From assembly GCA_965262915.1 (NCBI GenBank), contig OZ253564.1, positions 1,536,001 through 1,600,000 of the forward strand: a stretch of DNA of 64,000 bases, in the 5' to 3' direction. Positions within the stretch are counted from its first letter, which is position 1. Each line of letters starts with the position of its first letter. This document shows positions 4,169-57,150 of this stretch, one piece after another. The translations under genes were made by a program, and so were the position numbers. The notes under the pieces are model-generated. The model had not been told where the DNA came from and did not search any database. It worked only from the letters and a program-made list of their open reading frames with translations. The DNA is from Candidatus Spongiisociaceae bacterium. Its GTDB lineage: Bacteria; Actinomycetota; Acidimicrobiia; Spongiisociales; Spongiisociaceae.

Positions 4169-4171
4169 ACG

Positions 4172-18409: not shown

Positions 18410-18418
18410 TCTCCTGCC

Positions 18419-36752: not shown

Positions 36753-37514
36753 ATGAAGATCGTCCGGATGCAGACCCCGGAGGGGATCCGTTACGGCGGC
36801 GTGGAGCCGGAAGGGATCCGGATCTACGACGGGACGCCGTTCGTCGCCTGGCAACCGACCGAGGTGGTGATCGACTTCGGACAGGCCCGGCTGCTGGCGC
36901 CCGTGTTCCCCACCAAGGTGGTGGGTGTGGGTGGCAACTATCCGTTGCACGTCGAGGAGATGGGGCGTCGGTTCCCCGACCTGCCCAGCCTGTTCATCAA
37001 GCCCTCCACCTCCGTTATAGGACCCGGCAAGCCGATCGTGCTGCCCGCCCTGTCCGGCGAGGTACATCACGAGGCCGAGTTGGCGGTTGTCATCGGCAAG
37101 GTGGCCCGCAAGGTGGCGGTCGAGGACGCCTCCGGCGTGGTCCTCGGTTACACGGCCGGCAACGACGTGACCGCCCGGGATCTCCAGCGCGAGGACGGCC
37201 AGTCGACCAGGGCCAAAGGCTTCGACACTTTCTGCCCGCTCGGACCTGCCATCGAAACCGAGTACGACCCTCTCGAGGACTTCTCCCTGGAGTGCCGGGT
37301 CAACGGCGCCGTGCGGCAGGGTACGTCCATAAATGACATGATCTTCGGGGTCGCCGAGCTGATCGCTTTCGTGACATCGGTGATGACGCTGCTGCCCGGT
37401 GACGTGATCATGACCGGCACGCCTTCCGGGGTCGGGCCCGTCAGGCACGGCGACCTGGTCGAGGTCGTCCTGGAGGGGGTCGGCACGCTCTCGAACCCGG
37501 TGGTGGCCGAATGA
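36753..37514 (+). CDS. Fumarylacetoacetate hydrolase family protein
   Basis: HHEAELAVVIG, GNDVTARDLQ, KGFDTFCPLGP, GDVIMTGTP. Confidence 0.93.
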   Translation: MKIVRMQTPEGIRYGGVEPEGIRIYDGTPFVAWQPTEVVIDFGQARLLAPVFPTKVVGVGGNYPLHVEEMGRRFPDLPSLFIKPSTSVIGPGKPIVLPALSGEVHHEAELAVVIGKVARKVAVEDASGVVLGYTAGNDVTARDLQREDGQSTRAKGFDTFCPLGPAIETEYDPLEDFSLECRVNGAVRQGTSINDMIFGVAELIAFVTSVMTLLPGDVIMTGTPSGVGPVRHGDLVEVVLEGVGTLSNPVVAE

Positions 37515-39271: not shown

Positions 39272-40939
39272 TTAGTCCTGTTTGAGAACGATTCGTTGAT
39301 TAGCCGGAAACGGTCCTTTGAAGACCTGCTTGTCCCGTCCCGGCCACCACACGATGAACTCGTCTATCTGCTCGAAGTCGCCCAGGCCGAAATGCAACAC
39401 CTCCCAGGACTTGCCGGGCGAACCCGTCGAGCCATGGAGGACACGTCGGTCGAGAACCGCCCCGTCGATGCGCGCTTCTACCTCGGCGCCATAGGCGTAG
39501 CCCGAGCGGGGTTCGAGCGCAACGTGCATCCAGTTTCCGGCGTTCTCGGTGCGGTTCTCGAGCAGCCTGAAGGTCGCCGGGGACTGGTAGAACTGTACGA
39601 GGTCCAGGTCACCATCGCCGTCGTAGTCGGCCACGGCCGTCCCGCCCCCAGCCGGTCGCGGCCGCGAGTCAGGATCATCAATGTGCATGACCAGATCCAT
39701 CGTGTAGCCCGCCTGCTGGTCGGCCGTGAATATGAAGTCGGCCTGGCGCGGCGCGTCGGGTACCGTTTCTCCCAGGCTCATACTGATGAGGTCCTCCGGT
39801 GTGGAGAGGAGCGCCGAGTTGGTTACGAAGATGTCGAGGTACCCGTCGTGGTTGAAATCCTGAGCCTGGGGGGACCACGCCGAGTGGTAGAGGGTCGCCT
39901 CCCGAATCCCGGTCGACAGCGCTGCGTCTTCGAACGGGCCGTCGGGACGACCGAGCCAGAGCTGGTCCGGGCCTAGGTCCGCCACATAGAAGTCCCACAA
40001 TCCGTTTCGGTCGAAGTCAGCTATTGCATTGCCCATGCCGTGGTTGTACACCGCAAGACCTTCCCGAACCGCAATGTCCTCGAACTCCCCGGAGCCCTCC
40101 TGGTTGATGTACAGAGCGTTCGCGGCGAAGTCCTGCGTCATGAAGACGTCTAACCAGCCGTCACGGTCGTAGTCGATGAACGCGAAGCTGTGCACTGCGC
40201 CCGCGTCTCGGGCCCCCGGCGCCGGCTCGACCGCTTCCCACGAGCGGCCGTCGACATTACGGAACAGGAAAGTCGAGCTCCATTCGGTGGGGTGCAGGAG
40301 CGAGCATCCGTAATCGCTGTCCGTGAACTCGCAACTCTTCGGCTCGGGCAGCAGCGTATGACCACCGATGATGTCGAGATCGTGGTCACGGTCGAAGTCG
40401 AACAGGGCGATGGCCGGGATCCCGTAGGACTGTCCCAATTCGGGCTGCATCGGGGGCGTGACGCCCGTGAGTTCTTCGAACCGGAGGTTTCCCGCGCCCA
40501 TAAGGATCGTTACGGCCGGCGGCGCATGGCCGATCACGATGTCGACATTGCCGTCGCCGTCCAGGTCGCCTGTGGAGCATGACATCGCGATGAAGGTGGT
40601 GACCGGCTGGAGATGGTGGGCTACGAAGGTCCCATCGCCGTTGTTGAGGTGGATGTCGATGCCCGGGTCGATGCCCGGGTCGGTAATCGGTCCCAGCAGC
40701 AGATCCGGTCTTCCGTCCGCGTTGAAGTCATCGAAGACGATGCATCCGAAGTTCTTGTAGGAGAGCCCTGCGTCAAGCGTGACATCGATGAACTCGATGG
40801 GCTCTACCGGGTAATTGGGGGTGGCCAGGGTGTCGCTGGTGGCGTCGGCGCAGGCGACGATTGTCACGGCCATGGCGAGAAGCGAAACCGCCGGACGCCG
40901 CCAACCCGTACGCCATCCTCTGCTATGCGACGAGATCAC
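39272..40939 (-). CDS. FG-GAP repeat / ASPIC-UnbV (CRTAC1-like) lipoprotein
   Basis: Repeated D-x-D-x-D-G-x-x-D motifs (DFNADGRPD, DLDGDGNVD, DYDRDGWLD, DFNHDGYLD, DYDGDGDLD); C-terminal LHFGLG...WPG; lipobox IVAC; start uncertain (frame open to 41080). Confidence 0.88.
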   Translation of the reverse strand: MISSHSRGWRTGWRRPAVSLLAMAVTIVACADATSDTLATPNYPVEPIEFIDVTLDAGLSYKNFGCIVFDDFNADGRPDLLLGPITDPGIDPGIDIHLNNGDGTFVAHHLQPVTTFIAMSCSTGDLDGDGNVDIVIGHAPPAVTILMGAGNLRFEELTGVTPPMQPELGQSYGIPAIALFDFDRDHDLDIIGGHTLLPEPKSCEFTDSDYGCSLLHPTEWSSTFLFRNVDGRSWEAVEPAPGARDAGAVHSFAFIDYDRDGWLDVFMTQDFAANALYINQEGSGEFEDIAVREGLAVYNHGMGNAIADFDRNGLWDFYVADLGPDQLWLGRPDGPFEDAALSTGIREATLYHSAWSPQAQDFNHDGYLDIFVTNSALLSTPEDLISMSLGETVPDAPRQADFIFTADQQAGYTMDLVMHIDDPDSRPRPAGGGTAVADYDGDGDLDLVQFYQSPATFRLLENRTENAGNWMHVALEPRSGYAYGAEVEARIDGAVLDRRVLHGSTGSPGKSWEVLHFGLGDFEQIDEFIVWWPGRDKQVFKGPFPANQRIVLKQD

Positions 40940-40961
40940 AGCGAAAAGGCCGCGATCACAA

Positions 40962-41365
40962 ATAGGCTGATGATCTGCCGGTCCTGGCGCAGACGGGCTC
41001 ACAGCGCGGCTTGCCGATCCGATCCCAGCGATACGGGTCTTCTTCAAGATGATTCCTAACGTCGCATCAGGAAACAACATACAGGTCGACGCGGACGGTT
41101 TCGATTATCAGCGCGCCTGGCTCGAACCTTAGACCGTATCCCGGTCTGATGTCAGGTACGTCTCTCAGCCGGCGTCGGCAGCCGGATCGACGGCGACATC
41201 GATGATCATGTCTTCTTGTCATCCCACGACGCCGCGGCGTTCCATCTCGGGTAGGACATCCTTGGTGTCGACGTCGAACAGCCATGGAGAGAGCCGAAAC
41301 CGCCGACCCCGGCCAACCGGTGCGCCATCCTCTGCTGCCCGGCGAGATCACAACGAGAAGGCCAC
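40962..41365. repeat. Mosaic of diverged copies of nearby sequences (permease fragment, SBP start/intergenic/dmpG end, CRTAC1 5' end)
   Basis: 40962-41030 ~ 41690-41760; 41037-41280 ~ 44421-44660; 41281-41365 ~ 40869-40955. Confidence 0.85.
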
Positions 41366-41382: not shown

Positions 41383-42435
41383 TCACAGGTTGCGCTGACG
41401 CCTGACCTGATCGAGGGCGACAGCGACGATCAGCAACCCTCCGGTGACGGCAAACTGCCAGCCGGGCCGGGTGGCTTTGATGATGAGCCCCGTCTGCAAC
41501 GTGATGGGTATGAACGCACCGATCACCGTGCCGAGGATGGTGGCTGCGCCACCGAAGAGGGACGTGCCGCCGAGCACCACCGCGGTGATCGCATCAAGCG
41601 CGGTGAAGGCGTGGCCGCCCAGGTTGGTCGCCGCAAATCTGGCGACGTCGAGCAGCCCGGCGAGACCACAACAGAAGCCGACCAGCGCAAACAGGCTGAT
41701 GATGTGCCGGTCCTGGCGGAGCCCGGCCCGCAGCGCGGCTTGCCGATCCGATCCCAGCGCAACAGTCCGTAGGCCATACCTGGTCCGTTTCAGCACGATC
41801 CCGCCGCTGATCGCCACGACGGCCATGATGATCACCATGGCCGGGATCACGTCGAAGAGCTCCAGGGCGGCAAACTCGCTCTGCAGCTGCCGGGGGATGT
41901 ACTGGATGTTGATACCACCGGTGAGACCCAGCGCTGCGCCTTGGAGAACGCCAAACATACCCAACGTGACGATGAACGAGTTGACGTGCAGCTTGGTGAC
42001 GAGCAAACCGTTCACGATCCCGATAAGGGTGCCGACGACAATCGCCGCACTGAAGCCGACGATGAGGGCGATGGTGAGATTCGGGTAGATGCGCTGTGAC
42101 ACCTGCTCCGTGGTACCCGCCAGGTCGACGATCAGCCTCGCCGCCACGATCTGGCACACCACGATGTTGGTACCCACCGACAGGTCCAGTTCACCGGCAC
42201 CCAACAGATACGTCATGCCGACCGCAACGATGATCAGAACCGAAGCGTTGGTAGCCATGCTCCTGAAGTTGGTGAACCTCAGGAACACGCCTTCGGTCAG
42301 CACCGCGAAGATCACGATGGTGAGGACCAGGAACACAGTAACCCAGAAGACGCTGCTCCTGGTCAACAGCCAGCGCACGACCCGCTGGCCCCGGCTTTGC
42401 TCCTCCTGCGTACGCGGGTCGGCTGCCACCGCCAT
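41383..42435 (-). CDS. Sugar ABC transporter permease (RbsC-like)
   Basis: ELDLSVG, SFIVTLG, AVVLGGTSLFGG. Confidence 0.93.
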   Translation of the reverse strand: MAVAADPRTQEEQSRGQRVVRWLLTRSSVFWVTVFLVLTIVIFAVLTEGVFLRFTNFRSMATNASVLIIVAVGMTYLLGAGELDLSVGTNIVVCQIVAARLIVDLAGTTEQVSQRIYPNLTIALIVGFSAAIVVGTLIGIVNGLLVTKLHVNSFIVTLGMFGVLQGAALGLTGGINIQYIPRQLQSEFAALELFDVIPAMVIIMAVVAISGGIVLKRTRYGLRTVALGSDRQAALRAGLRQDRHIISLFALVGFCCGLAGLLDVARFAATNLGGHAFTALDAITAVVLGGTSLFGGAATILGTVIGAFIPITLQTGLIIKATRPGWQFAVTGGLLIVAVALDQVRRQRNL

Positions 42436-43205
42436 CAGCCGCTGGGCCCGTCTGATTCCCCGATGGCCGCACCCATCATGATGTCGATGACGCTCCGGAC
42501 CGACAGGTCCTCTGCCGGCTCTATCGCCACCACTCGGCCGTGCCTCATGACGGCGACCTTGTCAGCGAACTCCAACACCTGCCGGAGGTCGTGAGACACG
42601 ACCACGACGGCGACGCCCGAAGCGGCGGCTGCTTCCATTGCGTTGTAAACCATGGCCGTCTGCTGTGCGCCGAGGGCCGCGGTGGGCTCGTCCATCATCA
42701 TGCAGCCATAGCCGTAGGTCAACCCGCGGGCAACCGCCAGCGACTGGCGCTGCCCGCCCGAAAGGTTCCGTACCGGCTCGGTGATCTTGGGGAGCGATAT
42801 CTGGAGACGGCTCAGCCGCTCCTCCGTTTGTCTGGCGGCGGCTTTACGGTCCAGAAAACCGAGCTTTCCGGCAAACCCGCCCACCACCGGCTCATGTCCC
42901 AGAACGAGGTTCTCGGCCGCGGTGAGGTCAGGCGCCAACGCTAGGTCCTGGTAGACGATGTGAACACCACGTTCGTGAGCATCACGGACGCTGTGGAAGT
43001 TGACGACCTCACCCTCGAACTCAACGTGCCCTTCGTCCGGAACCAACTCTCCACCCAGGACCCGGACCAGCGTCGTCTTACCGGCACCGTTGTCTCCCAC
43101 CAACGCCAGCATCTCGCCGGAATGGACCGCCAACGTTGTCCCGTTCAGGGCGCGGATATGCCCGAAGTCGACGACGACATCGCGAGCTTCCATGAGCGGT
43201 TGCAC
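42435..43205 (-). CDS. Sugar ABC transporter ATP-binding protein
   Basis: GDNGAGKT, LSGGQRQ, MDEPTAALG, SH. Confidence 0.95.
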   Translation of the reverse strand: MQPLMEARDVVVDFGHIRALNGTTLAVHSGEMLALVGDNGAGKTTLVRVLGGELVPDEGHVEFEGEVVNFHSVRDAHERGVHIVYQDLALAPDLTAAENLVLGHEPVVGGFAGKLGFLDRKAAARQTEERLSRLQISLPKITEPVRNLSGGQRQSLAVARGLTYGYGCMMMDEPTAALGAQQTAMVYNAMEAAAASGVAVVVVSHDLRQVLEFADKVAVMRHGRVVAIEPAEDLSVRSVIDIMMGAAIGESDGPSG

Positions 43206-43248
43206 TCGTTCCGCCTCCCTCAGGCTCGACCGACGGAGCGTCCCGTCG

Positions 43249-43271
43249 GCTGAGAGGGCGCGCCTCTCAGC
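43249..43271. terminator. Stem-loop between the SBP and ATPase genes (mRNA stabiliser or attenuator)
   Basis: GCTGAGAGG-GCGCG-CCTCTCAGC, 9-bp perfect stem; further hairpins adjacent. Confidence 0.5.
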
Positions 43272-43312
43272 GCGCCGCTAAGACGGCGCCCCATGCTGTC
43301 AGGCCTGGGGCG

Positions 43313-44434
43313 CTAGCACTCGGCGACGTAGAACTGCTGCACGATCGCCGGATCGCTCATGTTGTCGCGATCCACCCAGATCGACGCGACGGCGACAGCC
43401 CGCTCCAGGCTATCGGGGTCGATCTCGCCCCGGATGATGCCGATGAGCGTGTTGACCGATTCGACACCCATCTGATAGGGCTGCTGACCGACCAGACCGT
43501 CGATGACTCCGGATTCGAGGTCAGCGAGAAAGTCGGGGAACAGGTCCCACGTGATCACGTCGACCTGATCCTCGAGCCCGGCGGCCGCAATGGCCGAGGC
43601 GGCGCCCTGCGCGGTGGTGCCGTTGCTTGTGTAGACGGCCACCAGGTCCGGGTTGGCCTCGATGATGGCCGCGAGGCCGTTAGCCGCAGTGGTCGCATCG
43701 TTGTCGGACCAAACGGTCGGCAGGACAGTCAGATCCGGTCGCAGCTCCAGGATGCCAGGCGCCCCGAACGTGCCGCTGAGGAAACCGTTGATACGCCTCG
43801 AGTTCCCATGACCCGGGCTGATCCCGATGATCGCCAACGATCCGTCCTGTGCAGCACTCTCCGCCATCTTCGAGGCGGCGAGCGCTCCGCCCAGGAACGG
43901 GTCAGTCGCCCTTCCCTGGACCGCGACCGGCGGATCCACGATCACGTCGAAGGTGACAACGGGGATTCCCTCGTTGATCCTGGCCTCGATCCAAGGGTTC
44001 GCGGCCGAGAAATCGTGGGGGACGTATGCGATCCCGTCCGGATCTTGGAGCAGCACAGCATCGAGGATAGGCTGCTGCACGTCCAAGCCCCACGAGTCCG
44101 CCGCCTGGACCGAGTACGTCACGCCTCCCGCTGCTTCAGCTGCGGCCTGGGCGCCGCAGGCAAAGGTCGTGTAGAAGCTGTCGTGGAGTCCCGGGATCAA
44201 TGCGAGGTGGATGTCTTCGGCCGGAGCGGCCATTGTCGTGGCCGCCGTTGTCGTCGTGGCGGAGGTGGTGGCCGGCGCCGCGGTCGTGGCCGGCGCCGAG
44301 GTGGTGGCCGGGGCAGAGGTGGTGGCCGGCGCAACTGTCGTCGTCACTTCGGCATCATCACCACAGGCCGCCGCTACCAGAGCAAAGGCGAGCAAGACGG
44401 CCAACAGCGGAACGGTACGAGTCCTCTTCAACAT
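43313..44434 (-). CDS. Sugar ABC transporter substrate-binding lipoprotein
   Basis: Lipobox AAAC-G; (APATTS)n linker; RbsB-like GIPVVTFD, QQPYQMG. Confidence 0.9.
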   Translation of the reverse strand: MLKRTRTVPLLAVLLAFALVAAACGDDAEVTTTVAPATTSAPATTSAPATTAAPATTSATTTTAATTMAAPAEDIHLALIPGLHDSFYTTFACGAQAAAEAAGGVTYSVQAADSWGLDVQQPILDAVLLQDPDGIAYVPHDFSAANPWIEARINEGIPVVTFDVIVDPPVAVQGRATDPFLGGALAASKMAESAAQDGSLAIIGISPGHGNSRRINGFLSGTFGAPGILELRPDLTVLPTVWSDNDATTAANGLAAIIEANPDLVAVYTSNGTTAQGAASAIAAAGLEDQVDVITWDLFPDFLADLESGVIDGLVGQQPYQMGVESVNTLIGIIRGEIDPDSLERAVAVASIWVDRDNMSDPAIVQQFYVAEC

Positions 44435-44547
44435 GATTCCTTGCCTTCCATCAGAAACAACCTGCAGGCCGACGCCGACGGTTTCAGTTATCAGCGGGCC
44501 TGGCTCGAACCTTAGTCCGTATAGCGGTTGATTGTCAGGGGCGTTTC

Positions 44548-45552
44548 TCAGCCGGCGTCGGCAGCCAACTCGATGGCGACATCGATGATCATGTCTTCTT
44601 GTCCCCCCACGACGCCGCGGCGCCCCAGTTCAAGGAGGATGTCCTTGGTGTCGACATCGAATCGCTGTGCAGCGCGTTTGGCGTGAAGCAAAAAGGATCC
44701 GTACACGCCTGCATAACCCAGCAGCAATCCGTCCCTGTCGATAATGCCCTGCTCCGGCTGCATGGGCCGCACGACGTCCTCGGCGACATCCATGACTGCC
44801 AGCGGATCGATACCCGTCGCCACGCCGGTCTTCTCGAACGCGGCAATGAGGATCTCGGTGGGGCAGTTTCCGGCACCTGCGCCGAGACCGGTAGTGCAGC
44901 CGTCTATCTGGTCGACACCTTCCTCATAGGCGGCCATCGAGTTGGCGACCCCCAGCGACAAATTGTTGTGGGCATGGATACCAACCTGGACATCGAGATT
45001 GGCCTTGAGGGCCGCGACACGGGATCTGGCGTCGTTGATCGTCATGGCCCCCGCGGAGTCGACGACATAAACGCAATCGGCTCCATAAGACTCCATGAGC
45101 TTTGCCTGCTCCACCAGCTGTGGGGCAGTGATCATGTGAGCCATCATCAGAAAGCCGACGGTCTCCATACCGAGCGTCTTCGCCAGATGGATGTGTTGTT
45201 CGGAGATGTCGGCTTCCGTGCAATGAGTAGCGATGCGGGCCACGCTTGCGCCGATATGGGCTGCCTCTACGAGATCGTCCTTGATGCCGATGCCGGGCAG
45301 CATGAGGACGGCGATCTTGGCGCTCTCGGCCTCATCCACCGCAACACGCAGCAGGTTCCTCTCGCTGGTGTGGCTGAACCCGTAGTTGAACGACGATCCG
45401 CCGAGGCCGTCGCCGTGGGAGACCTCGATGACGGGCACACCGGCGGTGTCCAACCCGCGGACCACCGCCCTCACCTGGTCTTCGGTGAACTGATGCGCCA
45501 AGGCGTGTGATCCGTCCCGCAGGGTCGAATCGGTGAGCCTGAAGCCGCTCAC
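44548..45552 (-). CDS. dmpG: 4-hydroxy-2-oxovalerate aldolase
   Basis: [40 protein letters not shown]. Confidence 0.95.
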
Positions 45553-46478
45553 GACGAAGCCGCCTCGTCGTTGAGGTTGTGGGCGATGGCCTCGCCGACT
45601 CGGATGGCGGCTGCCGTCATGATGTCGAGGTTGCCTGCGTACGGTGGGAAGTAGTCGGCGGCCCCTTCCACTTCGAGCAGAGCGATGACACGCGCGGGAA
45701 CGGGACCGCCGGGGGTGATGTAGCGCCCCTCGTCGAACACCGGGTCGGCCTTGAGGCGATAGCCGGGCACGTAGTCGCTGACCTGATCCACCATGTCGAG
45801 GATCGACTTGGTCACCGTGGCCTCGTCGAAGCCTTCGGCGAGGCCACAAAAGACCGTGTTGCGCATGATGATCGGTGGCTCTGCCGGATTGAGGACCATG
45901 ATCGCCTTCCCAACGGCGGCGCCTCCTACCTCCTCGAGTGCCCGCGACGTGGTCTTGGTGAACTCGTCGATGTTCTGTCTCGTGCCGGGTCCGGCCGATT
46001 TGGAAGCCACGGTGGAGACGATCTCCGCGTAAGGCACTTCAGCCACCGCGCACACGGAGGCGACGATCGGGACGGTCGCCTGGCCACCGCACGTAATCAG
46101 GTTGACGTTCGGTGCGTCGAGATGCTCGGCGAGGTTCACTGTCGGCACGACGTTGGGTCCCTGTTTTGCCGGTGTGAGATCTATCGCTCTGAGCCCGGCG
46201 GCTGCGTACAAGGGAGCGTTGTGCTGGTGCACCCGGGCGGTGGTGGCCTCGAAGATTATCGCGAAATCATCGGCCTGCTCGATGAGCCAGTCGGCGCCTT
46301 TATGGCTGGTCTCGACACCGAGCTCCCGAGCCCTCGCCAGACCATCCGAGTCGGGATCGATGCCCACCATGGCCCTGAGATCGAGCGCATCGGAGCGTTT
46401 GAGCTTGTACATGAGGTCTGTGCCGATGTTCCCGGAGCCGACGATGGCGACAGGTGCCGGGAGGGTGCGGGATGTCAC
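45549..46478 (-). CDS. dmpF: Acetaldehyde dehydrogenase (acylating)
   Basis: [41 protein letters not shown]. Confidence 0.95.
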
Positions 46479-47224
46479 GGCGAGTTACCTTCCCGCGACG
46501 TGGGCTCGCCGGCGAAGTCGACCAGGACGCCTTCGTATGCTTCGCGCAATACTGCGGCGTCGACCCCGATGAAGAGAATGTCTGCGCCCTTCTCCCGCCA
46601 CCACCTCGCGTTGGCTCCGGTCGCGGAGAAGACGCCAACCGAGACTCCCTCGCTCTTCGCGATCCGGATCACCCCTTCGATGGCGGCCACGACTTCGGGA
46701 TGCGCTGTCTCGCCGGGATGGCCGAGGGCCACCGACATATCGTACGGACCCAAGAACACGGCGTTGACGCCTTGAGCCTGCATGATCTCCAAGGCGTTGG
46801 CCAGACCGCTCACACCTTCGATCATGCAGATCACTTCGATTTCGTCGTCGGCATCCTCGACGAACCCGGCTCGTGCACCGTAACCGCCGGCGCGGACGAA
46901 CGGATTGAAGCCGCGGCCGCCACTGAACTTGGCGACCTCGACTGCGTGCGCCGCCGCTTCGGCCTTGGCGATGTGGGGGACTACGATGCCGGTGACCCCA
47001 ACGTCGAGCGCCCTCCCGATGGCCTCCGAATGGCTCGAGTCCACGCGAACCAGGCAGTCGGCGCCGAAGGCACGGGCTGCCGCGACCAATGGCGGGAGAT
47101 CGGAGACGGTCATCGGGCCGTGTTCGAGATCGATGAGCACGCCGTCGAAGCCTGCCGTGAGGACCACTTCGACGATCTCCAAGCGGGGGATTGACACCAA
47201 CGAGACGGTGCGCACTCTTGCCAT
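46475..47224 (-). CDS. HpcH/HpaI-family class II pyruvate aldolase
   Basis: [21 protein letters not shown]; start uncertain. Confidence 0.88.
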
Positions 47225-47240
47225 CAGCCCACGCCGACAC

Positions 47241-48416
47241 TCATTCGACCCGCTCCTCGGCTTGGACACTCGCGACAGTCGAGATGTCAGGTGAGAACCC
47301 GTGCCCGACGTCATCGGGCACGGCCATCCATCCCTCCTCGTCGAGTCTGTCCGCGGGGTCGAAATACGGATCCACGAATGGGTTGCCGGTGGCGTCCCAC
47401 TCTATGAGGAACCCGTTGTCGAGCGACGCCACCAGGTGCGTGTTGACGTGCATCGACATTGCGCTGTTGAGCGAGTGGGGGACGGCTAGGGCGCCATAGG
47501 CGCTGGCCATGGCTGCGATGCGCCTGGCCTCGGAGAGACCTCCGCACCAGCAGGCGTCCGGCTGAACGACATCGACCGCTCCCGCCGCCAGTAGGTCGCG
47601 GTACGCATATCGGGTGTATTCGGTTTCGAACCCGGCGATTCGTACGCCGTAACGATCTCGAATCCGGCTGGCGTGCCCGTAGTGGTCGGCGCTCACCGGT
47701 TCCTCGAGGAAAAAAAGGTCAGCGTCCTGGATCCGGTCGAGGAAGTTGATGGCAGTCGGCGCATCCCACTCGGTATTGGCATCGATCATCAGCAGCGAGT
47801 CTTCGCCGATTGCCTCCCTCACCGCCATGACCCGTTCGGCGTCCTGGGCCAGTGAGTAGGTGTCCGGGCGATCCCAAACTCTGGACCATTTCCTCTCTTG
47901 GCGGCCGACCTTCATCTTGAATGCACGGAAGCCCCGTTGCCGGTTGCCGGATACTTCTGCGACGAGCTGCTCCAGATCCTTGTCCGGCGCATAGAAGGCC
48001 GCGCTGGCGTACGGCATGACCTTCGATGACATCCGGCCCAGCACGTCGACAAGCGGCAAGTTGGCGCGGATGGCGAGGATGTCCCACAGGGCGATATCGA
48101 TGCCGCCCATCGCGGCGACAACCGCTCCCCGCCTACCGTGCTGGGCGGTGTGCTGGTACATCTTCTCCCACAGATAGTGGATCGCGGACGGATCCTCTCC
48201 GCGCACCAGCGGGAACAACTCGTAGCGGAGGATCGCCGAAGTGACCGAAGCCGGCCCGCCCCACACCGCAGGTTCGCCCCATCCTTCCAGGCCGTCCCCT
48301 GTCGTGAGTCGTACCCACATCGCTTCGCGCGCTCGGACACGATGGCGTGCGTCGGAGAATTCGGGAATCGCCTGTCGCAACGTGAAGACATCCATCGCGA
48401 CGATGTGGTCAGTCAT
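47241..48416 (-). CDS. Mandelate racemase/enolase-superfamily enzyme (probable acid-sugar dehydratase)
   Basis: DIALWD, KMK, IDAN, EEP, E, QPD, terminal H; metal ligands present. Confidence 0.9.
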   Translation of the reverse strand: MTDHIVAMDVFTLRQAIPEFSDARHRVRAREAMWVRLTTGDGLEGWGEPAVWGGPASVTSAILRYELFPLVRGEDPSAIHYLWEKMYQHTAQHGRRGAVVAAMGGIDIALWDILAIRANLPLVDVLGRMSSKVMPYASAAFYAPDKDLEQLVAEVSGNRQRGFRAFKMKVGRQERKWSRVWDRPDTYSLAQDAERVMAVREAIGEDSLLMIDANTEWDAPTAINFLDRIQDADLFFLEEPVSADHYGHASRIRDRYGVRIAGFETEYTRYAYRDLLAAGAVDVVQPDACWCGGLSEARRIAAMASAYGALAVPHSLNSAMSMHVNTHLVASLDNGFLIEWDATGNPFVDPYFDPADRLDEEGWMAVPDDVGHGFSPDISTVASVQAEERVE

Positions 48417-49218
48417 TGTCCCTCCATTCGATCGGGCGTGGCCATGAGGCTGCGGCGGCAGCGGCTTCGACCGACCCTGAGGCGGCATGGCCCGGCCAGA
48501 GTTCGTCTGCTGCCGCCAGCAACCTGGACACGGACCGAATCGTCTCGTAAGCGTCGAGTGCGGTCGTCGGCACTGCACCTTGCTCGAGGTGGATTTCGGT
48601 GAGGAGAAGATCCCCGAGCAGGGCAACTCTCCGATCGGCGCATACGTCTCCGACGAGAGCGACCGACCCCTTCGTATGACCACCGACTCTGAGCAACTCG
48701 ACGCCGTCGGCGAGGTTCTCCCTTTCGCCGTCCCACGCAATGAGCCGGCTCTGGGATTCGAGCTTGGCGAGTGTCGCCCGAGTGCCGGGGGTGATCTGCC
48801 AGGTAGGGATCACATTCATAACGTACGGAGAGTCCAATACTTCCAGCTCGTGGGCGTGGACCCAGACCTGGGCGCGTGGCAGCCAGTCGAGTGCCCCTGC
48901 GTGATCATGGTGAAGGTGCGATACCACGGCCACGTCGATGTCCTCGGCCCCGAGCCCGTGAGCCGCGAGCGCTCTGCGCACAGAGGCTTCATCTCCGGCC
49001 GCGTAACCGAAGCCGGGACCTATGGCCTCGTCGACGAATCGGTGGGTGATCTCGATGTCGGCGACGAGCCCACCATCGAACAGGATCTTCTTCTCGCCCG
49101 CCTCGACGAGGAAGGCCCAAACCCCCAACTCGGTGCGAGGCTGCTTCACGAGGCCGGCCATGAAGCCCGGTACGGTGATTTCGCCGATTCGCAGCGGGGT
49201 GATGGTGCAGTAGGTCAT
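48409..49218 (-). CDS. Metallo-beta-lactamase-fold lactonase (AHL-lactonase-like)
   Basis: SHLHHDHAG, GHTKG, GD, PGH. Confidence 0.85.
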   Translation of the reverse strand: MTYCTITPLRIGEITVPGFMAGLVKQPRTELGVWAFLVEAGEKKILFDGGLVADIEITHRFVDEAIGPGFGYAAGDEASVRRALAAHGLGAEDIDVAVVSHLHHDHAGALDWLPRAQVWVHAHELEVLDSPYVMNVIPTWQITPGTRATLAKLESQSRLIAWDGERENLADGVELLRVGGHTKGSVALVGDVCADRRVALLGDLLLTEIHLEQGAVPTTALDAYETIRSVSRLLAAADELWPGHAASGSVEAAAAAASWPRPIEWRDND

Positions 49219-49237
49219 GTGCGGCCTCGAAATGGCT

Positions 49238-49999
49238 TCAGATGACCGTCATGGTCATCGCCCCGTCAACGGAGAAGGCGTGGCCGTGCACGAACGAGGC
49301 CTCGTCGCTGCACAGCCAAGTTACGGCGGCTGCGATCTCGGCGGGCCGGCCAAAGCGCCCGATGGGAAGTTGGCGAAGCATCCATCCCTCCGCCTCCGGG
49401 TTCTCTTTCCAGAACTCGACGTTCATTCCGGTGGCGATGTGGCCCGGACAGACGCAGTTGATGCGGATGCCTTGTGTGGCGTACTCCGCCGCCGCCGCTC
49501 TGGTCAGTCCGACGACGCCGTGTTTGCTCGCCACGTAGGCGCTCACGTTGGCGAGCGCGACCAGACCGAGAGCCGACGCCGCGTTGACGATTGAACCCTT
49601 GCCGTTGTCCAGCATCACCTCGAGCTGGTATTTCATGCACAGAAAAACGCCGGTGAGGTTGACGGCGACTGTGTTCGAGAACTCGTCGGACGTGTGCTCG
49701 TGGAGCGGTTTGCCGAGGCCGCCGACGCCTGCATTGTTGAACGCAAAGTCGAGGCCTCCGAGTTGCCGGGTCGTCTGTTCCACGGCGCCGCGCACATCGT
49801 CTTCAGCAGTTACGTCGGCTTCTATGCCGATGGCCCGGATCCCCTTCGACTCGAGAAGTTGGAGCGTCGTGTCGATTCCTGTCGGGTCGCGGTCGACGAC
49901 GGCGACCCGACAGCCCTTCTCCCCGAACCGAGCAGCGGTTGTCTGGCCGATCCCGGATCCGGCTCCAGTAACAAAGGCGACTGGTTCTCCTTCGAACAT
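49238..49999 (-). CDS. SDR family NAD(P)-dependent dehydrogenase
   Basis: TGAGSGIG, NNAG, YVASKH. Confidence 0.95.
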   Translation of the reverse strand: MFEGEPVAFVTGAGSGIGQTTAARFGEKGCRVAVVDRDPTGIDTTLQLLESKGIRAIGIEADVTAEDDVRGAVEQTTRQLGGLDFAFNNAGVGGLGKPLHEHTSDEFSNTVAVNLTGVFLCMKYQLEVMLDNGKGSIVNAASALGLVALANVSAYVASKHGVVGLTRAAAAEYATQGIRINCVCPGHIATGMNVEFWKENPEAEGWMLRQLPIGRFGRPAEIAAAVTWLCSDEASFVHGHAFSVDGAMTMTVI

Positions 50000-50027
50000 G
50001 AGTGCTCCGATCTGGCGGACCTACCGA

Positions 50028-50128
50028 GGAGAGTGCTGAGCAATCCACCGGCGGCCCGTCGGTCAACGATAAAATACCCGGTCAACGAGCGACGGGCCAA
50101 CAGCAATCGTCATTGTTCAGCCTTCTCC
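50028..50128. mobile_element. ~100-bp palindromic MITE-like element, copy 1
   Basis: Imperfect TIR GGAGAGTGCTGAGCAA...TTGTTCAGCCTTCTCC; internal GGCCCGTCG/CGACGGGCC; homologous to 57151-57250. Confidence 0.7.
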
Positions 50129-50235
50129 GAGAACCACGATAATCAGCAACGTGAACACGGCCCGGCAAATGGTACAGTTGTCACAACCACGGAGCGTCCG
50201 GCGTGATGCCGGCTGAGCGGGGCGGAGGTTGGTTG

Positions 50236-51771
50236 GTGAGCGATACCGGGGGTGGTACCGAGGCTGCCGATATGGGTCGCCGCTACCGCATTGCCATCGG
50301 CGGGATACTCACGGAGAGCAACGACTTCTGCGGACAGCCAACTGACATCGCCGCCTTCGAGCGTGGCGTTTTCGCCCGGGGCGATGCCGTGCTTGAGCTC
50401 GAAAGTTCCAGCGTTGGAGGGATGCTCAAGGGGCTTCGCGAATACGGCGCCGACATAGTGCCGCTGTTCTTCGCCGCAGCCCACCCGGGTGGGGCGGTGA
50501 CGTCGGAAGCGTACTCGAGCATGCGAGCGGAGTTGCTCGGTGCTCTCGAGCAGGCCTTACCGGTCGACGGTGTGCTGTTACCCCTTCACGGCTCGGCGGC
50601 CGCGGAGGACGTAGACGACCCGGAAGGCGACATCGCCGGTGCGGTGCGATCGCTGGTCGGACCAGCGGCCCCGATTGTCGTGTCTCTCGACCTGCACGCG
50701 TCGATTACCGTCGCCATGATGCGCCACTGCGATGTCCTCTTGGGCTGTGAGACGTATCCGCACACGGACTACGACAAGACCGGCGAGCGGGCGGCGCGAA
50801 TGATCCACCAGATTCTCGATGGTGCGATCAACCCGACGATGGTGATGGCCAAGGCGCCGATGATCGTAGGTGCAGTGAACACTGCGACTGCGGGACCGGG
50901 ACCGTTTGGTGATCTCATGCGGGGCGCCAAGGCCTTCGAGGGACAAGGCGGCGTGATCTCGACCAGCGCGTTCCTGGTCCATCCGCATCTCGACCGACCG
51001 GAGATGGGCAGTGGTGCACTCGTCATCACCGACGACGACGTCGAGATCGCCACCGAGATCGCCACCGACCTCGCCGCTGATTTCTGGCGGCGACGTGCCG
51101 ACATCGAGCCTTCCCTGTTCTCACCTGAAGCTGCGGTCCGGCGCGGGCTCGAAGCGGAGGGCGGGCCGGTGATCCTGGTCGAGGCCGCTGACTGTGTAGG
51201 CGGGGGCGCCACCGGAGACAGCGTGGCCACCCTCGCGGCCCTCCTCGATGCCGGGGTTCGTGAAGAGTGCTTGGTCCCGGTCGTCGATCCGGGTGTCGCC
51301 GCGGTCTGTCACGACGCCGGAGTCGGCGCGGAGGTCACCGTCGCTATCGGACATTCCGTCGATCCTCAGTGGGGCGACCCGATCGAAGTGACCGGCACGG
51401 TCGACAGGCTGAGCGATGGCCGCTTCACCTACGTGGGCGGGGCGTTTGAAGGGGAGGCAACGATGGGACCGTCGGCCGTGCTCTCCATAGGCGCGATCCG
51501 GGTCCTCGTCATGACCCATGGTACCTACGACTGGTGTGACGAGCAGTTCCGGGCGGTTGGTCTCGATCCGAGCGCCGCGAAGTTCATCGTTGCCAAGAAT
51601 CCGATGAACCATGTCATGACCTACGGTGACATCGCAACGGAGATCGTCGTCATCGACAGCCCGGGTCCGACTCCGGCGACGGTACGGGGCCTCCCGTTCC
51701 GTCGTCTCGACCGACCGGTCTACCCGTTCGACGAGGACATCCCGGATTTGGAGCCGTTGATTCTCCAATGA
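50236..51771 (+). CDS. M81 family metallopeptidase (MlrC-like)
   Basis: TESNDF, LHGS...DDPEGD, SLDLHA, YPHTD, D..GGGATGD. Confidence 0.9.
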   Translation: MSDTGGGTEAADMGRRYRIAIGGILTESNDFCGQPTDIAAFERGVFARGDAVLELESSSVGGMLKGLREYGADIVPLFFAAAHPGGAVTSEAYSSMRAELLGALEQALPVDGVLLPLHGSAAAEDVDDPEGDIAGAVRSLVGPAAPIVVSLDLHASITVAMMRHCDVLLGCETYPHTDYDKTGERAARMIHQILDGAINPTMVMAKAPMIVGAVNTATAGPGPFGDLMRGAKAFEGQGGVISTSAFLVHPHLDRPEMGSGALVITDDDVEIATEIATDLAADFWRRRADIEPSLFSPEAAVRRGLEAEGGPVILVEAADCVGGGATGDSVATLAALLDAGVREECLVPVVDPGVAAVCHDAGVGAEVTVAIGHSVDPQWGDPIEVTGTVDRLSDGRFTYVGGAFEGEATMGPSAVLSIGAIRVLVMTHGTYDWCDEQFRAVGLDPSAAKFIVAKNPMNHVMTYGDIATEIVVIDSPGPTPATVRGLPFRRLDRPVYPFDEDIPDLEPLILQ

Positions 51772-52778: not shown

Positions 52779-52804
52779 CCTCGGTGCAGCGAGACGGGAG
52801 AACC

Positions 52805-53881
52805 ATGTTCGACGGCGAGCCGGTCGCTTCGATACCAGGGGGCCGGATGGGTGCGGCCCGGGTATGGGACGTCCGGGGTTCGTTCGAGCCGGCAGAAGCC
52901 TTGGCGGCGCTACCGGGCGCTGTGAGCGTTGAGGACGCGGCCCGGTCGCTGCTGTCCGGAATGCTATTGGTACGCCGCTTCGAGGAAACAGCGGTAGAGC
53001 TGATGAGGCAGGGCCGCATCGTCGGGGCTGTCCATACCAGTATCGGGCAGGAGGCGACCGCGGTCGGGATCTGCTCGGCGCTGGCGCCGCAGGACCTGAT
53101 CACGGGCACCCACCGATCGCACGGTCATCTGCTGGCGAAGGGATCATCGCCGAAAGCTCTGATGGCGGAGCTTTTCGGAAAGACAACGGGGGTAAGCCGA
53201 GGGCGAGGCGGGTCGATGCATGTTGCTGACATCGAAAAGGGCTCTCTGGGCGCATCGGGGATTGTCGGTGGCGGTCTCCCCATTGCGGTGGGAGCAGCAT
53301 GGGCTCGGCGGCTGCAGGGTGAAGACCTGGTGAGCCTGGCCTTCTTCGGTGACGGCGCCGCCAACCAGGGAATGGTCCATGAGGCGATGAATCTGGCCGC
53401 GGTCTGGCGGACGCCGACGATCTTCGTTTGCGAGAACAACGGTTACGCCATCTCGACACCGGCCGAGGACACGGTGGCCGGCGAACACGTTGCGTACCGT
53501 GCCCTGGCCTACGGCTTCGACGGATGCATTGCCGATGGACAGAACGTGTTCGAGATGCTGGCTGTGGCAACTGCGGTCACGACGTTGGTTCGCAGCCGGC
53601 AGGCACCATTCCTCATCGAGGCGAAGACCTACCGGTACCGTGAGCACGCCGAAGGAATCTCATTGGCTTACCGCGATGACTCCGAAATCGAAGACTGGAA
53701 GAGTCGACGTGATCCGATCGCCACGTTCGTCGCGACCACAGATGAGTTGGGCATTCTGTCTCCGAACGACGTTGCGGAGATCGAGGACCGGATCAACGAG
53801 GTGATGAGCGAGGCCGTGGCGTTCGCCCAAGACAGTCCTGCGCCCGATCCCTCGGAGCTATACCGTTACCTCTATGCCTGA
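52805..53881 (+). CDS. TPP-dependent dehydrogenase E1 alpha (acetoin/pyruvate DH-like)
   Basis: GQEA, HRSHGH, GRGGSMH, GDGAANQG...ENN, TYRYREH. Confidence 0.93.
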   Translation: MFDGEPVASIPGGRMGAARVWDVRGSFEPAEALAALPGAVSVEDAARSLLSGMLLVRRFEETAVELMRQGRIVGAVHTSIGQEATAVGICSALAPQDLITGTHRSHGHLLAKGSSPKALMAELFGKTTGVSRGRGGSMHVADIEKGSLGASGIVGGGLPIAVGAAWARRLQGEDLVSLAFFGDGAANQGMVHEAMNLAAVWRTPTIFVCENNGYAISTPAEDTVAGEHVAYRALAYGFDGCIADGQNVFEMLAVATAVTTLVRSRQAPFLIEAKTYRYREHAEGISLAYRDDSEIEDWKSRRDPIATFVATTDELGILSPNDVAEIEDRINEVMSEAVAFAQDSPAPDPSELYRYLYA

Positions 53882-54872
53882 TCCTGCGCCATCCACCGAC
53901 AGGCATCTGAGCTACCTCGACGCCATCCGGGAGGCACAGCTCGAGGAGATGCGCGCTGACCAAAACGTGGTGATCCTGGGTGAGGACGTGCGTTCCGGCT
54001 TCTATGGAACGACGCACGGGCTCGCCGCCGAGTTCGGCGATGACCGGGTGATCGATACTCCCATCTCCGAGGCAGGTTTCGTCGGCGCCGCGATCGGGGC
54101 CGCCATGTCGGGCCTGCGGCCGATCGTGGATCTGGAGATGGCGCCTTTCGTGTACGTATCGATCGATCAACTGGTGAGCCAGGCGGCCAAGAGCCCGTAC
54201 ATGTTCGGTGGCCGGATACGGATCCCGATCGTTGTCAGGGCGGCGATGTTCTACGGGGCGGGCCTCGCCGCACAGCATTCTGATCGTCCGTACCCCATGT
54301 TGCTCGGCGTGCCAGGGCTCACGGTCGTCACCCCGGCGTCGCCAACCGACGCGAAGTATCTGCTCAAGGCGGCAATCCGCGACGACAATCCTGTCGTAAT
54401 TCTCGAGGACGCCGGGCTGTGGTCGGCTCGTGAGTTCGTTCCCGAGGAGGATCCAACGCGCTCGCGACAGGTTCTGGGCGTCTCCCGGATCGTTCGGCGG
54501 GGCTCCGATGTCACCGTCGTGGCGGTGGCTCGAATGGTGCGCGAAGCCCTGCGGGCGGCCGAGCGCCTCGAAGATGAAGGGGTGTCGGTGGAGGTCATCG
54601 ATCCCCGCACCTTGAATCCGGCGGACTGGGACACGATGTTGGCATCTGCAGAACGCACCGGGCGCCTGGTGGCTGTGGACCCGGCTCATCGCACGGCCTC
54701 ATTTGCGAGTGAATGCGTGGCCCGAATCGCCTCAGAGGCTTTCGACGCTCTGCGGAGCCCGCCGGTCATCGTGGCGACACCGGATGTGCATCCCCCGTTT
54801 GCGCCCACGATGGAGCGGGGCCTGTACCCCGATGCTGACTCGATCGCCGCCGCATGCCGGTCCGTGTTGTAG
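53874..54872 (+). CDS. TPP-dependent dehydrogenase E1 beta
   Basis: GEDV, DTPISEAGF, GLRP, AAQHS, IDPRTL. Confidence 0.93.
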   Translation: MPDPAPSTDRHLSYLDAIREAQLEEMRADQNVVILGEDVRSGFYGTTHGLAAEFGDDRVIDTPISEAGFVGAAIGAAMSGLRPIVDLEMAPFVYVSIDQLVSQAAKSPYMFGGRIRIPIVVRAAMFYGAGLAAQHSDRPYPMLLGVPGLTVVTPASPTDAKYLLKAAIRDDNPVVILEDAGLWSAREFVPEEDPTRSRQVLGVSRIVRRGSDVTVVAVARMVREALRAAERLEDEGVSVEVIDPRTLNPADWDTMLASAERTGRLVAVDPAHRTASFASECVARIASEAFDALRSPPVIVATPDVHPPFAPTMERGLYPDADSIAAACRSVL

Positions 54873-54881
54873 GAGACAGGC

Positions 54882-55127
54882 GTGGTCGATTCGATAGAAG
54901 TTGTAATGCCTCAGTACGGCATGGGGATGATGGAGGGAATCATCGCGACGTGGCGCGTGACGGTAGGTGACATTGTGACCCGGTGGCAGGTGATCGCCGA
55001 CGTGGAGGTGGAAAAGGTAGACGTCGAGCTCGAGGCGCCGGCTGCCGGTCAGATCACAGAGATATGCGTCGCCGAAGGAGAGTCCGCCGTCGTGCAGCAG
55101 GTTGTGGCGCGCATCGCACCGCAGTAG
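54882..55127 (+). CDS. Stand-alone lipoyl domain protein
   Basis: MPQYGMGMMEG...VEVEKVDVELEAPAAG; 81 aa, no E2 catalytic domain. Confidence 0.85.
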   Translation: MVDSIEVVMPQYGMGMMEGIIATWRVTVGDIVTRWQVIADVEVEKVDVELEAPAAGQITEICVAEGESAVVQQVVARIAPQ

Positions 55128-56575: not shown

Positions 56576-56980
56576 TCAGGTACTTTCGAGCACGACGACC
56601 GGGATGACCCGTGATGTCCTGGCTTCGTACTCGGCGAACTGGGAGTAATCCCGTTTCTGGCGACTCCAGATACGGTCCCTCTCGTCCCCCTGGGCGACAC
56701 GGGCTATGACCCGGACCGTCTCGGTCCCGACCTCCACCTCCGTTCGGGGATTCGCCACTAGGTTGTGGTACCAGTCGGGGTTGGTGTCGGCCCCGGCCTT
56801 GGAGGCGAAGACCGCGTAGTCACGCCCCACGTCCTGGTACGCGAGCGGGGTAACCCTTCGGGTACCCGTCCGGGCGCCGACATGGTGGAGAAGCAACAGC
56901 GACCGGCCTTCGAACATACTGCCCACCTTGCCGCCGTTGGCCCGAAACTCCTCTATCACACCCTGGTTCCAGTCGCTCAT
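56576..56980 (-). CDS. F420-dependent nitroreductase family (Ddn-like) oxidoreductase
   Basis: IEEFRANGG, ASKAGA..NPDWYHNL.ANP, R.IPVVVL. Confidence 0.92.
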   Translation of the reverse strand: MSDWNQGVIEEFRANGGKVGSMFEGRSLLLLHHVGARTGTRRVTPLAYQDVGRDYAVFASKAGADTNPDWYHNLVANPRTEVEVGTETVRVIARVAQGDERDRIWSRQKRDYSQFAEYEARTSRVIPVVVLEST

Positions 56981-57150
56981 TCCACCTTCCTTCCTCTAGT
57001 CTGCCCGGCGACTATCCCGGTCCCGAGTCGAGAATGGCACAGTCCTGGAATTACCCGAACACGGGAAGCCCGTCGCTGAGTTCCTGGCAGGATCGGAGTG
57101 AGTGCGATTCCCCGGCCCGGGGAGGAATCGATCTGGGTGGACGGGTTTAT

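Follow-up and report, generated by a model that had tools for sequence, protein, structure and literature searches.

We analysed a 64,000-nt window of the genome of Candidatus Spongiisociaceae bacterium (assembly GCA_965262915.1, contig OZ253564.1, positions 1,536,001-1,600,000 of the forward strand), in which a run of nine consecutive genes on the minus strand, from 41383 to 49999, encodes an importer and six enzymes. Open reading frames (ORFs) were scored with Pfam and NCBIfam models, and the closest PDB entries were identified by sequence match. A preliminary description of this DNA had claimed such a gene set, and all nine genes are indeed recovered on the minus strand at the following coordinates:

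49238-49999, minus strand: classical short-chain dehydrogenase/reductase (SDR), 253 amino acids (aa); adh_short_C2, 3e-63
48409-49218, minus strand: metallo-beta-lactamase (MBL)-fold hydrolase, 269 aa; Lactamase_B, 4e-14
47241-48416, minus strand: enolase-superfamily enzyme, 391 aa; MR_MLE_C, 3e-58, and MR_MLE_N, 2e-18
46475-47227, minus strand: HpcH/HpaI aldolase, 250 aa; PF03328, 9.5e-33
45549-46478, minus strand: DmpF, 309 aa; TIGR03215, 430 bits (cutoff 282.25), and AcetDehyd-dimer (PF09290), 2.4e-55
44548-45552, minus strand: DmpG, 334 aa; TIGR03217, 515.3 bits (cutoff 286)
43313-44434, minus strand: sugar-binding lipoprotein, 373 aa; Peripla_BP_4, 1.3e-41
42435-43205, minus strand: single-domain ABC ATPase, 256 aa; ABC_tran, 1.4e-27
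41383-42435, minus strand: ABC sugar permease, 350 aa; BPD_transp_2, 1.2e-29

The packing is as tight as had been described, with the genes from the MBL gene through dmpG either overlapping or 13 nt apart. A gap of 19 nt separates the SDR gene from the MBL gene, which overlaps the enolase-superfamily gene by 8 nt; the HpcH gene follows after 13 nt, and the HpcH/dmpF and dmpF/dmpG junctions are both 4-nt overlaps, the latter at a GTGA. The binding-protein gene lies 113 nt beyond dmpG and 107 nt ahead of the ATPase gene, and the ATPase and permease genes share 1 nt. For the enolase-superfamily gene, the start was placed at the ATG that gives 391 aa, the same length as in the 97% identical relative P0001. 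The HpcH gene starts at the ATG at 47227, giving 250 aa (249 aa in P0241, a 96% identical relative), and dmpG at the GTG at 45552 within the GTGA, giving 334 aa as in P0121, which is 98% identical. The SDR gene has a GGAG 6-9 nt ahead of its ATG. Because of the overlaps and short gaps between them, the six enzyme genes look like one translationally coupled unit, with the transporter genes next on the same strand.

The enolase-superfamily enzyme carries an intact active site. Its K167-x-K169 motif, D212, E238, E264, D287 and H314 are invariant in an alignment of 26 sequences and are retained in the relatives P0001-P0039, and the enzyme has the hallmarks of the mandelate racemase subgroup, i.e. 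the KxK motif, three carboxylate metal ligands and the His-Asp dyad. None of its 16 NCBIfam matches reaches the cutoff, the best being the archaeal arabinonate dehydratase model (AraD_Arch, 224.2 against 650), and the enzyme falls outside the named dehydratase families for arabinonate, galactonate, L-rhamnonate, talarate/galactarate, mannonate and gluconate. Its closest PDB entry is 5olc (5.6e-50). A 15-residue insert after the KxK motif is absent from the four closest PDB relatives, and this insert, together with a 20s-loop motif D-[AS]-[RK]-[HN], is common to 39 of 117 full-length relatives (P0001-P0039, 53-97% identical). Judged from these sequence features, the protein is probably an acid-sugar dehydratase of an uncharacterised mandelate racemase subfamily. 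The same alignments contain a large group of enolase-superfamily sequences (P0058, P0062, P0065-P0069 and many more), 31-37% identical to the window enzyme, which have the motif KMKIGN and a lysine in place of the catalytic His314 while keeping the D/E/E/D residues, and which have a 20s-loop motif of their own (ALTYARG-like); no named function for this group turned up in the searches made.

For the two enzymes that would precede the dehydratase, the family assignments are as follows. The SDR clears a single NCBIfam cutoff, that of the subfamily model NF005559 'glucose 1-dehydrogenase' (226.9 against 215), and is probably an NAD-dependent sugar 1-dehydrogenase. An alignment of 53 sequences shows the metal-site residues H101, H103, D105, H181, D203 and H244 of the MBL-fold protein to be invariant, with H106 present in 90% of the sequences. 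Its AlphaFold model (pLDDT 90.8) matches lactonases first, namely GcL, 4-pyridoxolactonase, AaL and AiiA (TM 0.69-0.75), and the best eight Foldseek matches in the PDB, at TM 0.71-0.74, are all lactonases. The best NCBIfam matches are likewise all lactonases, far under their cutoffs (top score 61.6 against 325). By motif and predicted fold, the protein is a lactonase-type hydrolase. It is also a near-orphan: among 1.84 billion representatives, 42 match at E <= 1e-10 and three at E <= 1e-30, two of the three coming from its own cluster and one being 42% identical. Searches of the ESM Atlas returned only generic MBL and MR/MLE clusters.

The importer is, from its sequences, of the CUT2 type and the monosaccharide class. 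The binding protein has a signal peptide with ...AAAC followed by an Ala/Thr-rich linker, and the PDB entries most similar to it in sequence are binding proteins for monosaccharides (5dkv, 7e-32; 4rxt, 3e-25; 4wut, 3e-17), of which the 4WUT structure contains D-fucose. A single-sequence structure prediction of this protein gave a pLDDT of 39.6, too low to be of use. The ATPase has a single nucleotide-binding domain and matches only the first half (1-248 of about 500) of the XylG, AraG and RbsA models, and the best NCBIfam matches of the permease are MglC, AlsC, AraH and RbsC, all under cutoff. A transporter of the monosaccharide type is not what one would expect if the substrate of the run were gamma-valerolactone or another non-sugar lactone, and that possibility was set aside for this reason.

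Two aldolases are encoded, and they belong to different families. The catalytic His (EH) and Arg (vRv) of the HpcH protein and its metal-binding Glu (iEg) and Asp (gpyDms) align with those of YfaU, GarL and HpaI, and its scores lie under the equivalog cutoffs for HpaI (138 against 369), GarL (135 against 407) and 2-keto-3-deoxy-L-rhamnonate (KDR) aldolase (102 against 441); on this basis it is a class II pyruvate aldolase of the HpcH/HpaI family. DmpG has the HMGL-like domain (PF00682, 2.8e-49) and the communication domain DmpG_comm (PF07836, 3.7e-30), and aligns end to end with 4lrs (1e-123), 4jn6 (4e-119) and 1nvm (9e-118). Compared with 1nvm, the catalytic stretch R-D-G-S-H and the stretches L-M-L-P-G (DmpG L88 and L90) and G-V-Y (DmpG Y291) are conserved. 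DmpF passes the TIGR03215 equivalog cutoff, has the dimerisation domain, and is encoded by a gene that overlaps the aldolase gene by 4 nt; its translation contains TCGGQA, which we take to hold the catalytic cysteine. By sequence, DmpF and DmpG are thus canonical members of their families, the communication domain of DmpG included.

What these aldolases may cleave can be judged from characterised relatives. BphI accepts only the (4S) form of 4-hydroxy-2-oxopentanoate (HOPA), a preference enforced by Tyr-290, and the C4 alkyl group sits in a pocket lined by Leu-87 and Leu-89 (PMC3962088). The window DmpG retains the equivalents of all three residues, and its expected substrate is therefore (4S)-HOPA or the hexanoate homologue; polyhydroxylated acids should not be accepted. 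Stereospecificity is lacking in most class II aldolases of the HpcH class, and E. coli HpaI makes both 4R- and 4S-HOPA (PMC8560999). The statement in the preliminary description that DmpG-type aldolases take the S enantiomer and HpaI takes both thus agrees with these two reports.

All functions of a non-phosphorylative sugar route, i.e. a 1-dehydrogenase, a lactonase, a dehydratase, a keto-deoxy-acid aldolase and a sugar transporter, are present at family level in this single strand run. The best explanation of the nine genes is that they form one catabolic unit, which imports a neutral monosaccharide and oxidises it by the non-phosphorylative route. In enzyme logic and in families (SDR 1-dehydrogenase, lactonase, enolase-superfamily dehydratase and HpcH aldolase), the run resembles the Dahms pentose route, the LRA1-4 pathway for L-rhamnose and the RhmD-RhmA (YfaU) system of E. 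coli. Unlike those, it lies under the cutoffs for the L-rhamnonate, galactonate, arabinonate and talarate dehydratases and for the KDR, GarL and HpaI aldolases, and it has an MBL-fold lactonase and closes with a canonical DmpFG pair, whereas a dehydrogenase for lactaldehyde or glycolaldehyde is absent.

From enzyme families whose catalytic residues are intact and whose genes are tightly coupled, we infer the substrates and the order of the steps as follows. The ABC system would import the sugar, the SDR would oxidise it at C1 to the 1,4-lactone, the MBL-type lactonase would open the lactone, and the enolase-superfamily enzyme would dehydrate the acid across C2-C3 to a 2-keto-3-deoxy acid, which the class II aldolases would cleave to pyruvate and a short aldehyde that DmpF would turn into an acyl-CoA. 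Since a canonical DmpG is translationally coupled to this sugar route, HOPA or acetaldehyde would be an intermediate. Dehydration of a 5-deoxypentonate would give exactly HOPA, the natural substrate of DmpG, and from it acetaldehyde for DmpF; a 5-deoxypentonate would be the simplest source of HOPA, and a terminal-deoxy pentose appears to be the class of sugar that gives every gene a job. We tentatively propose that the run is an oxidative route for a 5-deoxypentose, yielding pyruvate and acetyl-CoA, a reading that we judge quite possible while stopping short of calling it probable. A 5-deoxypentose closes only as a furanose, never as a pyranose, and its lactone is therefore a 1,4-lactone; the MBL-fold enzyme may fit such a furanose-derived lactone, the nearest structural relatives of its model all being enzymes that hydrolyse gamma-lactones. 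The rarity of the enolase-superfamily enzyme and the HpcH aldolase, the near-orphan status of the MBL protein and the position of all three under the curated cutoffs would fit an unusual sugar over a mainstream one.

The stereochemical division of labour that we infer is as follows. By our own Cahn-Ingold-Prelog assignment, D-series sugars would lead to (4R)-HOPA and L-series sugars to (4S)-HOPA. A D-series sugar, e.g. 5-deoxy-D-ribose, would give (4R)-HOPA to be cleaved by the non-stereospecific HpcH aldolase, and (4S)-HOPA, whether from an L-series sugar or from the reversible condensation catalysed by HpcH, would go to DmpG. In its most specific form, the proposal is that this actinobacterium takes 5-deoxy-D-ribose, and perhaps 5-methylthioribose, from its environment and degrades it by an undescribed non-phosphorylative route in which HpcH and a channelling DmpFG pair yield pyruvate and acetyl-CoA with little free acetaldehyde. 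That version would call for a new 5-deoxypentonate dehydratase in the enolase superfamily and for a near-orphan MBL lactonase, with (4R)-HOPA going to HpcH beside a (4S)-specific DmpFG. We consider this version in all its parts unlikely; 5-deoxy-D-ribose in particular carries about half of the weight that we give to the 5-deoxypentose proposal.

The front end of the proposed route has precedents in natural product biosynthesis. Two NAD-dependent SDRs, SalM and FdrC, act on 5-chloro- and 5-fluoro-5-deoxy-D-ribose, respectively, and oxidise them to the gamma-lactone and the acid (PMC5947533). SalH has been proposed to act further to 5-chloro-4-hydroxy-2-oxopentanoate, and FdrB possibly to the fluoro analogue (PMC7408626), so that dehydration of a 5-substituted 5-deoxyribonate to a 4-hydroxy-2-oxopentanoate, the kind of step on which the preliminary description had relied, has already been proposed in print for the chloro and fluoro analogues. 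The SalM reaction has also been raised as a hint to the fate of 5-deoxyribose itself (PMC6302742). SalM/SalH of the salinosporamide chloroethylmalonyl-CoA branch and FdrC/FdrB of the fluorometabolites of Streptomyces sp. MA37 thus share the front-end chemistry proposed here. They differ from the run in being biosynthetic, in using an IlvD-type dihydroxy-acid dehydratase, in having no separate lactonase or aldolases, and in drawing on a sugar made in the cell; by Pfam, the dehydratase of the window belongs to the enolase superfamily and not to IlvD/Edd.

The known catabolic route for 5-deoxyribose and 5-methylthioribose is the dihydroxyacetone phosphate (DHAP) shunt (PMC12632272, PMC10986504, PMC6302742). 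Like the route proposed here, it leads to a central metabolite together with acetaldehyde or a similar aldehyde. It differs in being phosphorylative and leading to DHAP; the run has no kinase, isomerase or class II aldolase of the fuculose-phosphate type, and the proposed route would be its non-phosphorylative counterpart leading to pyruvate. By Pfam, none of the DHAP-shunt families (5-deoxyribose/methylthioribose kinase, 1-phosphate isomerase and class II aldolase) occurs in the run or its flanks. The pathway had been called undescribed, and no description of such a route was found in the open-access literature of PMC and bioRxiv. The terms 5-deoxyribonate, 5-deoxy-D-ribonate, 5-deoxypentonate, 5-deoxy-L-arabinonate and 5-deoxyribonolactone returned nothing from that literature, nor did a HOPA aldolase tied to 'deoxy sugar' or 'non-phosphorylative', and the sole paper joining the terms for 5-deoxyribose and HOPA was the fluorometabolite study (PMC7408626). 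A review that treats 5-deoxyribose together with lactonase and dehydratase likewise describes no such route.

Searches for relatives show how far these genes travel together. The enolase-superfamily enzyme has eight relatives of at least 75% identity and about 30 more at 53-68%, mostly metagenomic and one from Actinomadura sp. B10D3. HpcH has eight of at least 57% identity, after which identity drops to 43%. Relatives of the two share a contig in three cases, of 6781 bp (P0004/P0244), 2631 bp (P0006/P0245) and 10960 bp (P0007/P0247), as read from identical longest-contig sizes; five of the clusters involved have a single member and one has two, each on one contig. The 2631-bp contig holds little beyond two genes, and the enolase and HpcH genes are therefore neighbours there. 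When genomes were scanned with the 26-sequence enolase alignment, eight loci were found, with enolase relatives 24-33% identical; in tblastn of 11 window proteins against these eight loci, the matches were confined to the SDR and the enolase, with none for HpcH, DmpF, DmpG, MBL or the transporter. In tblastn against plasmids, the enolase-superfamily enzyme matched 321 records, none of which reaches 60% identity (the 25 best listed go no higher than 37.3%), DmpG matched 343 (best 62.8%), and HpcH matched 526, again all under 60% (at most 38.0% among the best 60 listed). None of the plasmid records listed (25 for the enolase-superfamily enzyme and 60 each for DmpG and HpcH) has all three genes adjacent; the nearest pair among them, an enolase and an HpcH gene in Haladaptatus sp. 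QDMS2, is separated by about 10 kb.

Having raised the possibility of a 5-deoxypentose route, we would note that several observations weigh against it. In this lineage, DmpG is far more frequent than the enolase or the HpcH enzyme, each of which has eight close relatives: DmpG has at least 120 relatives, all those listed being at least 77% identical and those with names coming from Acidimicrobiia or Actinomycetota metagenome-assembled genomes. Because DmpG is so much more widespread than the sugar genes, dmpFG is probably a resident pair that usually works without them. A weaker sign in the same direction is that the 120 listed DmpG relatives include none whose longest contig measures 6781 or 10960 bp, the sizes of the two shared enolase-HpcH contigs with enough room for dmpG, although multi-member clusters report only their longest contig and could hide a match, and the list reaches down to 77% identity. 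The wider enolase subfamily at 53-68% identity, including that of Actinomadura sp. B10D3, also shows no close partner among the HpcH relatives retrieved. The stereochemistry is a further difficulty, in that 5-deoxy-D-ribose would give (4R)-HOPA, which a canonical DmpG should not cleave; HpcH would therefore have to do so, and DmpG would be left a scaffolding or clean-up role. It could then serve as the partner of DmpF, or consume (4S)-HOPA re-formed by HpcH, which would account for the presence of two aldolases. The closest PDB entries of the SDR are generic SDRs, not sugar dehydrogenases (7djs, 4e-57). The substrates of the binding protein, the SDR and the dehydratase are predicted from gene context in one lineage. 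In addition, a Pfam scan of the 126 ORF translations over the whole 64 kb (11 + 18 + 24 + 73) shows no regulator, nucleosidase or other S-adenosylmethionine salvage gene nearby, and an Rfam search found no riboswitch, a tRNA being its sole match. On balance, the earlier 5-deoxy-sugar interpretation is chemically sound and finds partial support: the gene content, the packing, the lack of meta-cleavage genes, the enantiomer preferences and specificity residues, and the dehydration precedent speak for it, and the commonness of DmpG and the (4R) product weaken it.

The main rival reading is an ordinary route of the Dahms or LRA type, in which one of the common sugars (a pentose, a hexose or a 6-deoxyhexose, e.g. 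D-arabinose, L-fucose or L-rhamnose) is degraded as far as HpcH, giving pyruvate and glycolaldehyde, lactaldehyde or glyceraldehyde. A resident dmpFG would then be merely co-transcribed, serving HOPA or acetaldehyde from elsewhere, or DmpF would acylate the aldehyde product. The SDR, the lactonase, the enolase-type dehydratase and the HpcH-type aldolase already make up a complete route, the best NCBIfam match of the dehydratase is a D-arabinonate dehydratase, and the relatives of the binding protein take ordinary sugars, as the D-fucose in 4WUT illustrates. The pairing of enolase and HpcH genes on three contigs, to which no listed DmpG relative could be matched, and the abundance of DmpG over the sugar genes speak for it as well. 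The 4-nt overlaps at both ends of dmpF, however, argue for coupled expression, and an ordinary sugar would leave DmpG without a substrate from the pathway. Known substrates of DmpF and BphJ are unfunctionalised aldehydes, which counts against acylation of the products just named, and it would be unexpected for a mainstream sugar to be handled by a rare enolase-superfamily enzyme, HpcH aldolase and MBL protein that fall under every curated cutoff. We lean away from this explanation, while granting it a substantial chance of being true.

The DmpFG pair itself invites comparison with aromatic and steroid catabolism. With its scores above the cutoffs, its communication domain, its catalytic and specificity residues and its overlapping genes, it is a full member of the group formed by DmpFG, BphIJ, MhpEF and HsaFG; in those meta-cleavage and cholesterol systems, a hydratase, a meta-cleavage hydrolase and an extradiol dioxygenase are usual upstream, and in the window a sugar-acid module stands there instead. 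A second rival reading takes HpcH, DmpF and DmpG as the lower part of a meta-cleavage pathway for aromatics or steroids, with the hydratase and the upper genes encoded in another part of the genome; the SDR, MBL and enolase-superfamily enzymes would then have as substrate a lactone or hydroxy acid of an unrelated kind, perhaps not a sugar. In its favour, homologues of DmpFG classically serve meta-cleavage or cholesterol pathways, the PDB entries closest to DmpG carry the name 4-hydroxy-2-oxovalerate aldolase, the best listed plasmid matches of DmpG include known aromatic degraders, e.g. Rhodococcus and Pseudomonas, and HpaI belongs to the degradation of 4-hydroxyphenylacetate. The absence of meta-cleavage genes from the run, noted earlier from its ORFs, nevertheless holds across the entire window: the 126 ORF translations in 64 kb include no extradiol dioxygenase, dedicated meta-cleavage hydrolase family or 2-oxopent-4-enoate hydratase. 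The sole hydrolase-fold match is a Peptidase_S9 protein at 33346-35049, with secondary S15, Abhydrolase_1 and BD-FAE matches. The one FAA-hydrolase-family gene of the window, 3.9 kb beyond the run (36753-37514, plus strand), might seem to favour a meta-cleavage pathway, but it lies on the other strand beside gltX and is of the Rv2993c type, with an Rv2993c-like N-terminal domain. It matches no hydratase model at E <= 1e-10, and its best NCBIfam scores are under cutoff (HpaG C-terminal, 172.9 against 276.4; 2,4-didehydro-3-deoxy-L-rhamnonate hydrolase, 140.6 against 500). The monosaccharide-type importer that follows dmpG on the same strand also speaks against such a pathway, as does the co-occurrence of HpcH with the enolase gene and not visibly with DmpG. 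We think a meta-cleavage role of the three genes very doubtful.

The radical-SAM by-product 5'-deoxyadenosine is made by every cell that uses these enzymes, and the DHAP shunt is the only route for disposing of its sugar that came up in the literature searched. If the 5-deoxypentose reading is true, cells would have a second, independent means of disposing of a 5-deoxy sugar, this one oxidative. A near-orphan lactonase and an uncharacterised enolase subfamily comprising about 39 sequence clusters would each gain a function, and it would follow that DmpFG, normally the tail of aromatic or steroid degradation, had been recruited into sugar metabolism. Such a pathway, if real, is a variation on a known pathway type and not a new kind of system. 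If the sugar is instead an ordinary one, the run is a further operon of the Dahms type with a resident dmpFG next to it. Either way it is compact, offering six soluble enzymes and one binding protein as candidates for assay.

Upstream of the SDR gene lies a short region shared with a divergent gene:

50000-50202, no strand: divergent intergenic region upstream of the SDR gene, 203 nt, with a repeated 10-mer

The 10-mer TCGTTGACCG occurs here in two exact copies on the minus strand, at 50060-50069 and 50079-50088, which are 19 nt apart and some 60-90 nt upstream of the SDR start; there is no further exact copy in the 64 kb. The repeat is a possible operator; the regulator that would bind it was not seen, and none is encoded next to it. 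A weak terminator-like site overlaps the upstream copy. A sigma-70 scan found no promoter in 50000-50202, and promoter and terminator predictions were no more frequent than in shuffled sequence. The G+C content of the window is high, at 0.59-0.70. The divergent gene itself (50203-51771, plus strand) encodes a protein of the MlrC/M81-like metallopeptidase family with no evident link to the pathway.

Other genes around the run were also recorded. To its left are the housekeeping genes ligA, mnmA, a dapD-like gene, gatCAB and gltX, and after the permease gene comes a secreted FG-GAP/ASPIC-UnbV repeat protein of 602 aa (39272-41080, minus strand), again with no evident pathway link. On the plus strand, 52784-55127 encodes E1-alpha and E1-beta subunits and a stand-alone 84-aa lipoyl protein, with no E2 catalytic domain seen. 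The E1 subunits are pyruvate dehydrogenase-like but under cutoff, and the lipoyl protein best matches the N-terminus of an acetoin dehydrogenase E2; this trio, which is a separate transcription unit on the other strand, would also yield acetaldehyde if it were acetoin dehydrogenase-like. Another aldolase is encoded at 2996-5659 (plus strand), where a deoxyribose-phosphate aldolase (TIGR00126, 162.7 against a cutoff of 117.3), extended at its N-terminus by about 130 aa, comes directly before an aldehyde dehydrogenase. Just downstream, at about 5749-6411 (plus strand) and in another frame, a further Aldedh match covers profile positions 15-232 only and may be a gene fragment.

Towards the right end, a tRNA gene at 59975-60048 is followed up to 64000 by the stretch with the lowest G+C (0.59-0.63) and the strongest GC skew of the window, within which a DUF5131 protein is encoded at 63124-63867; this stretch may be an element integrated at the tRNA. 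Two ORFs with PIN domains, at 16942-17505 (plus strand) and 17973-18545 (minus strand), probably encode the toxins of toxin-antitoxin systems and lie near a gene for a Polyketide_cyc2/SRPBCC protein. An S41 peptidase with PDZ and S-layer-homology (SLH) domains is encoded at 6676-9117 (minus strand), and a weak SLH match, with no stretch passing alone, is found at 27985-28665 (plus strand; E 7.8e-05, 23 bits). Taken together with an F420-related enzyme (below) and with the Acidimicrobiia names among the nearest DmpG relatives, these genes suggest an actinobacterium of the Acidimicrobiia kind. Finally, an F420H2-dependent quinone reductase is encoded at 56576-56995.

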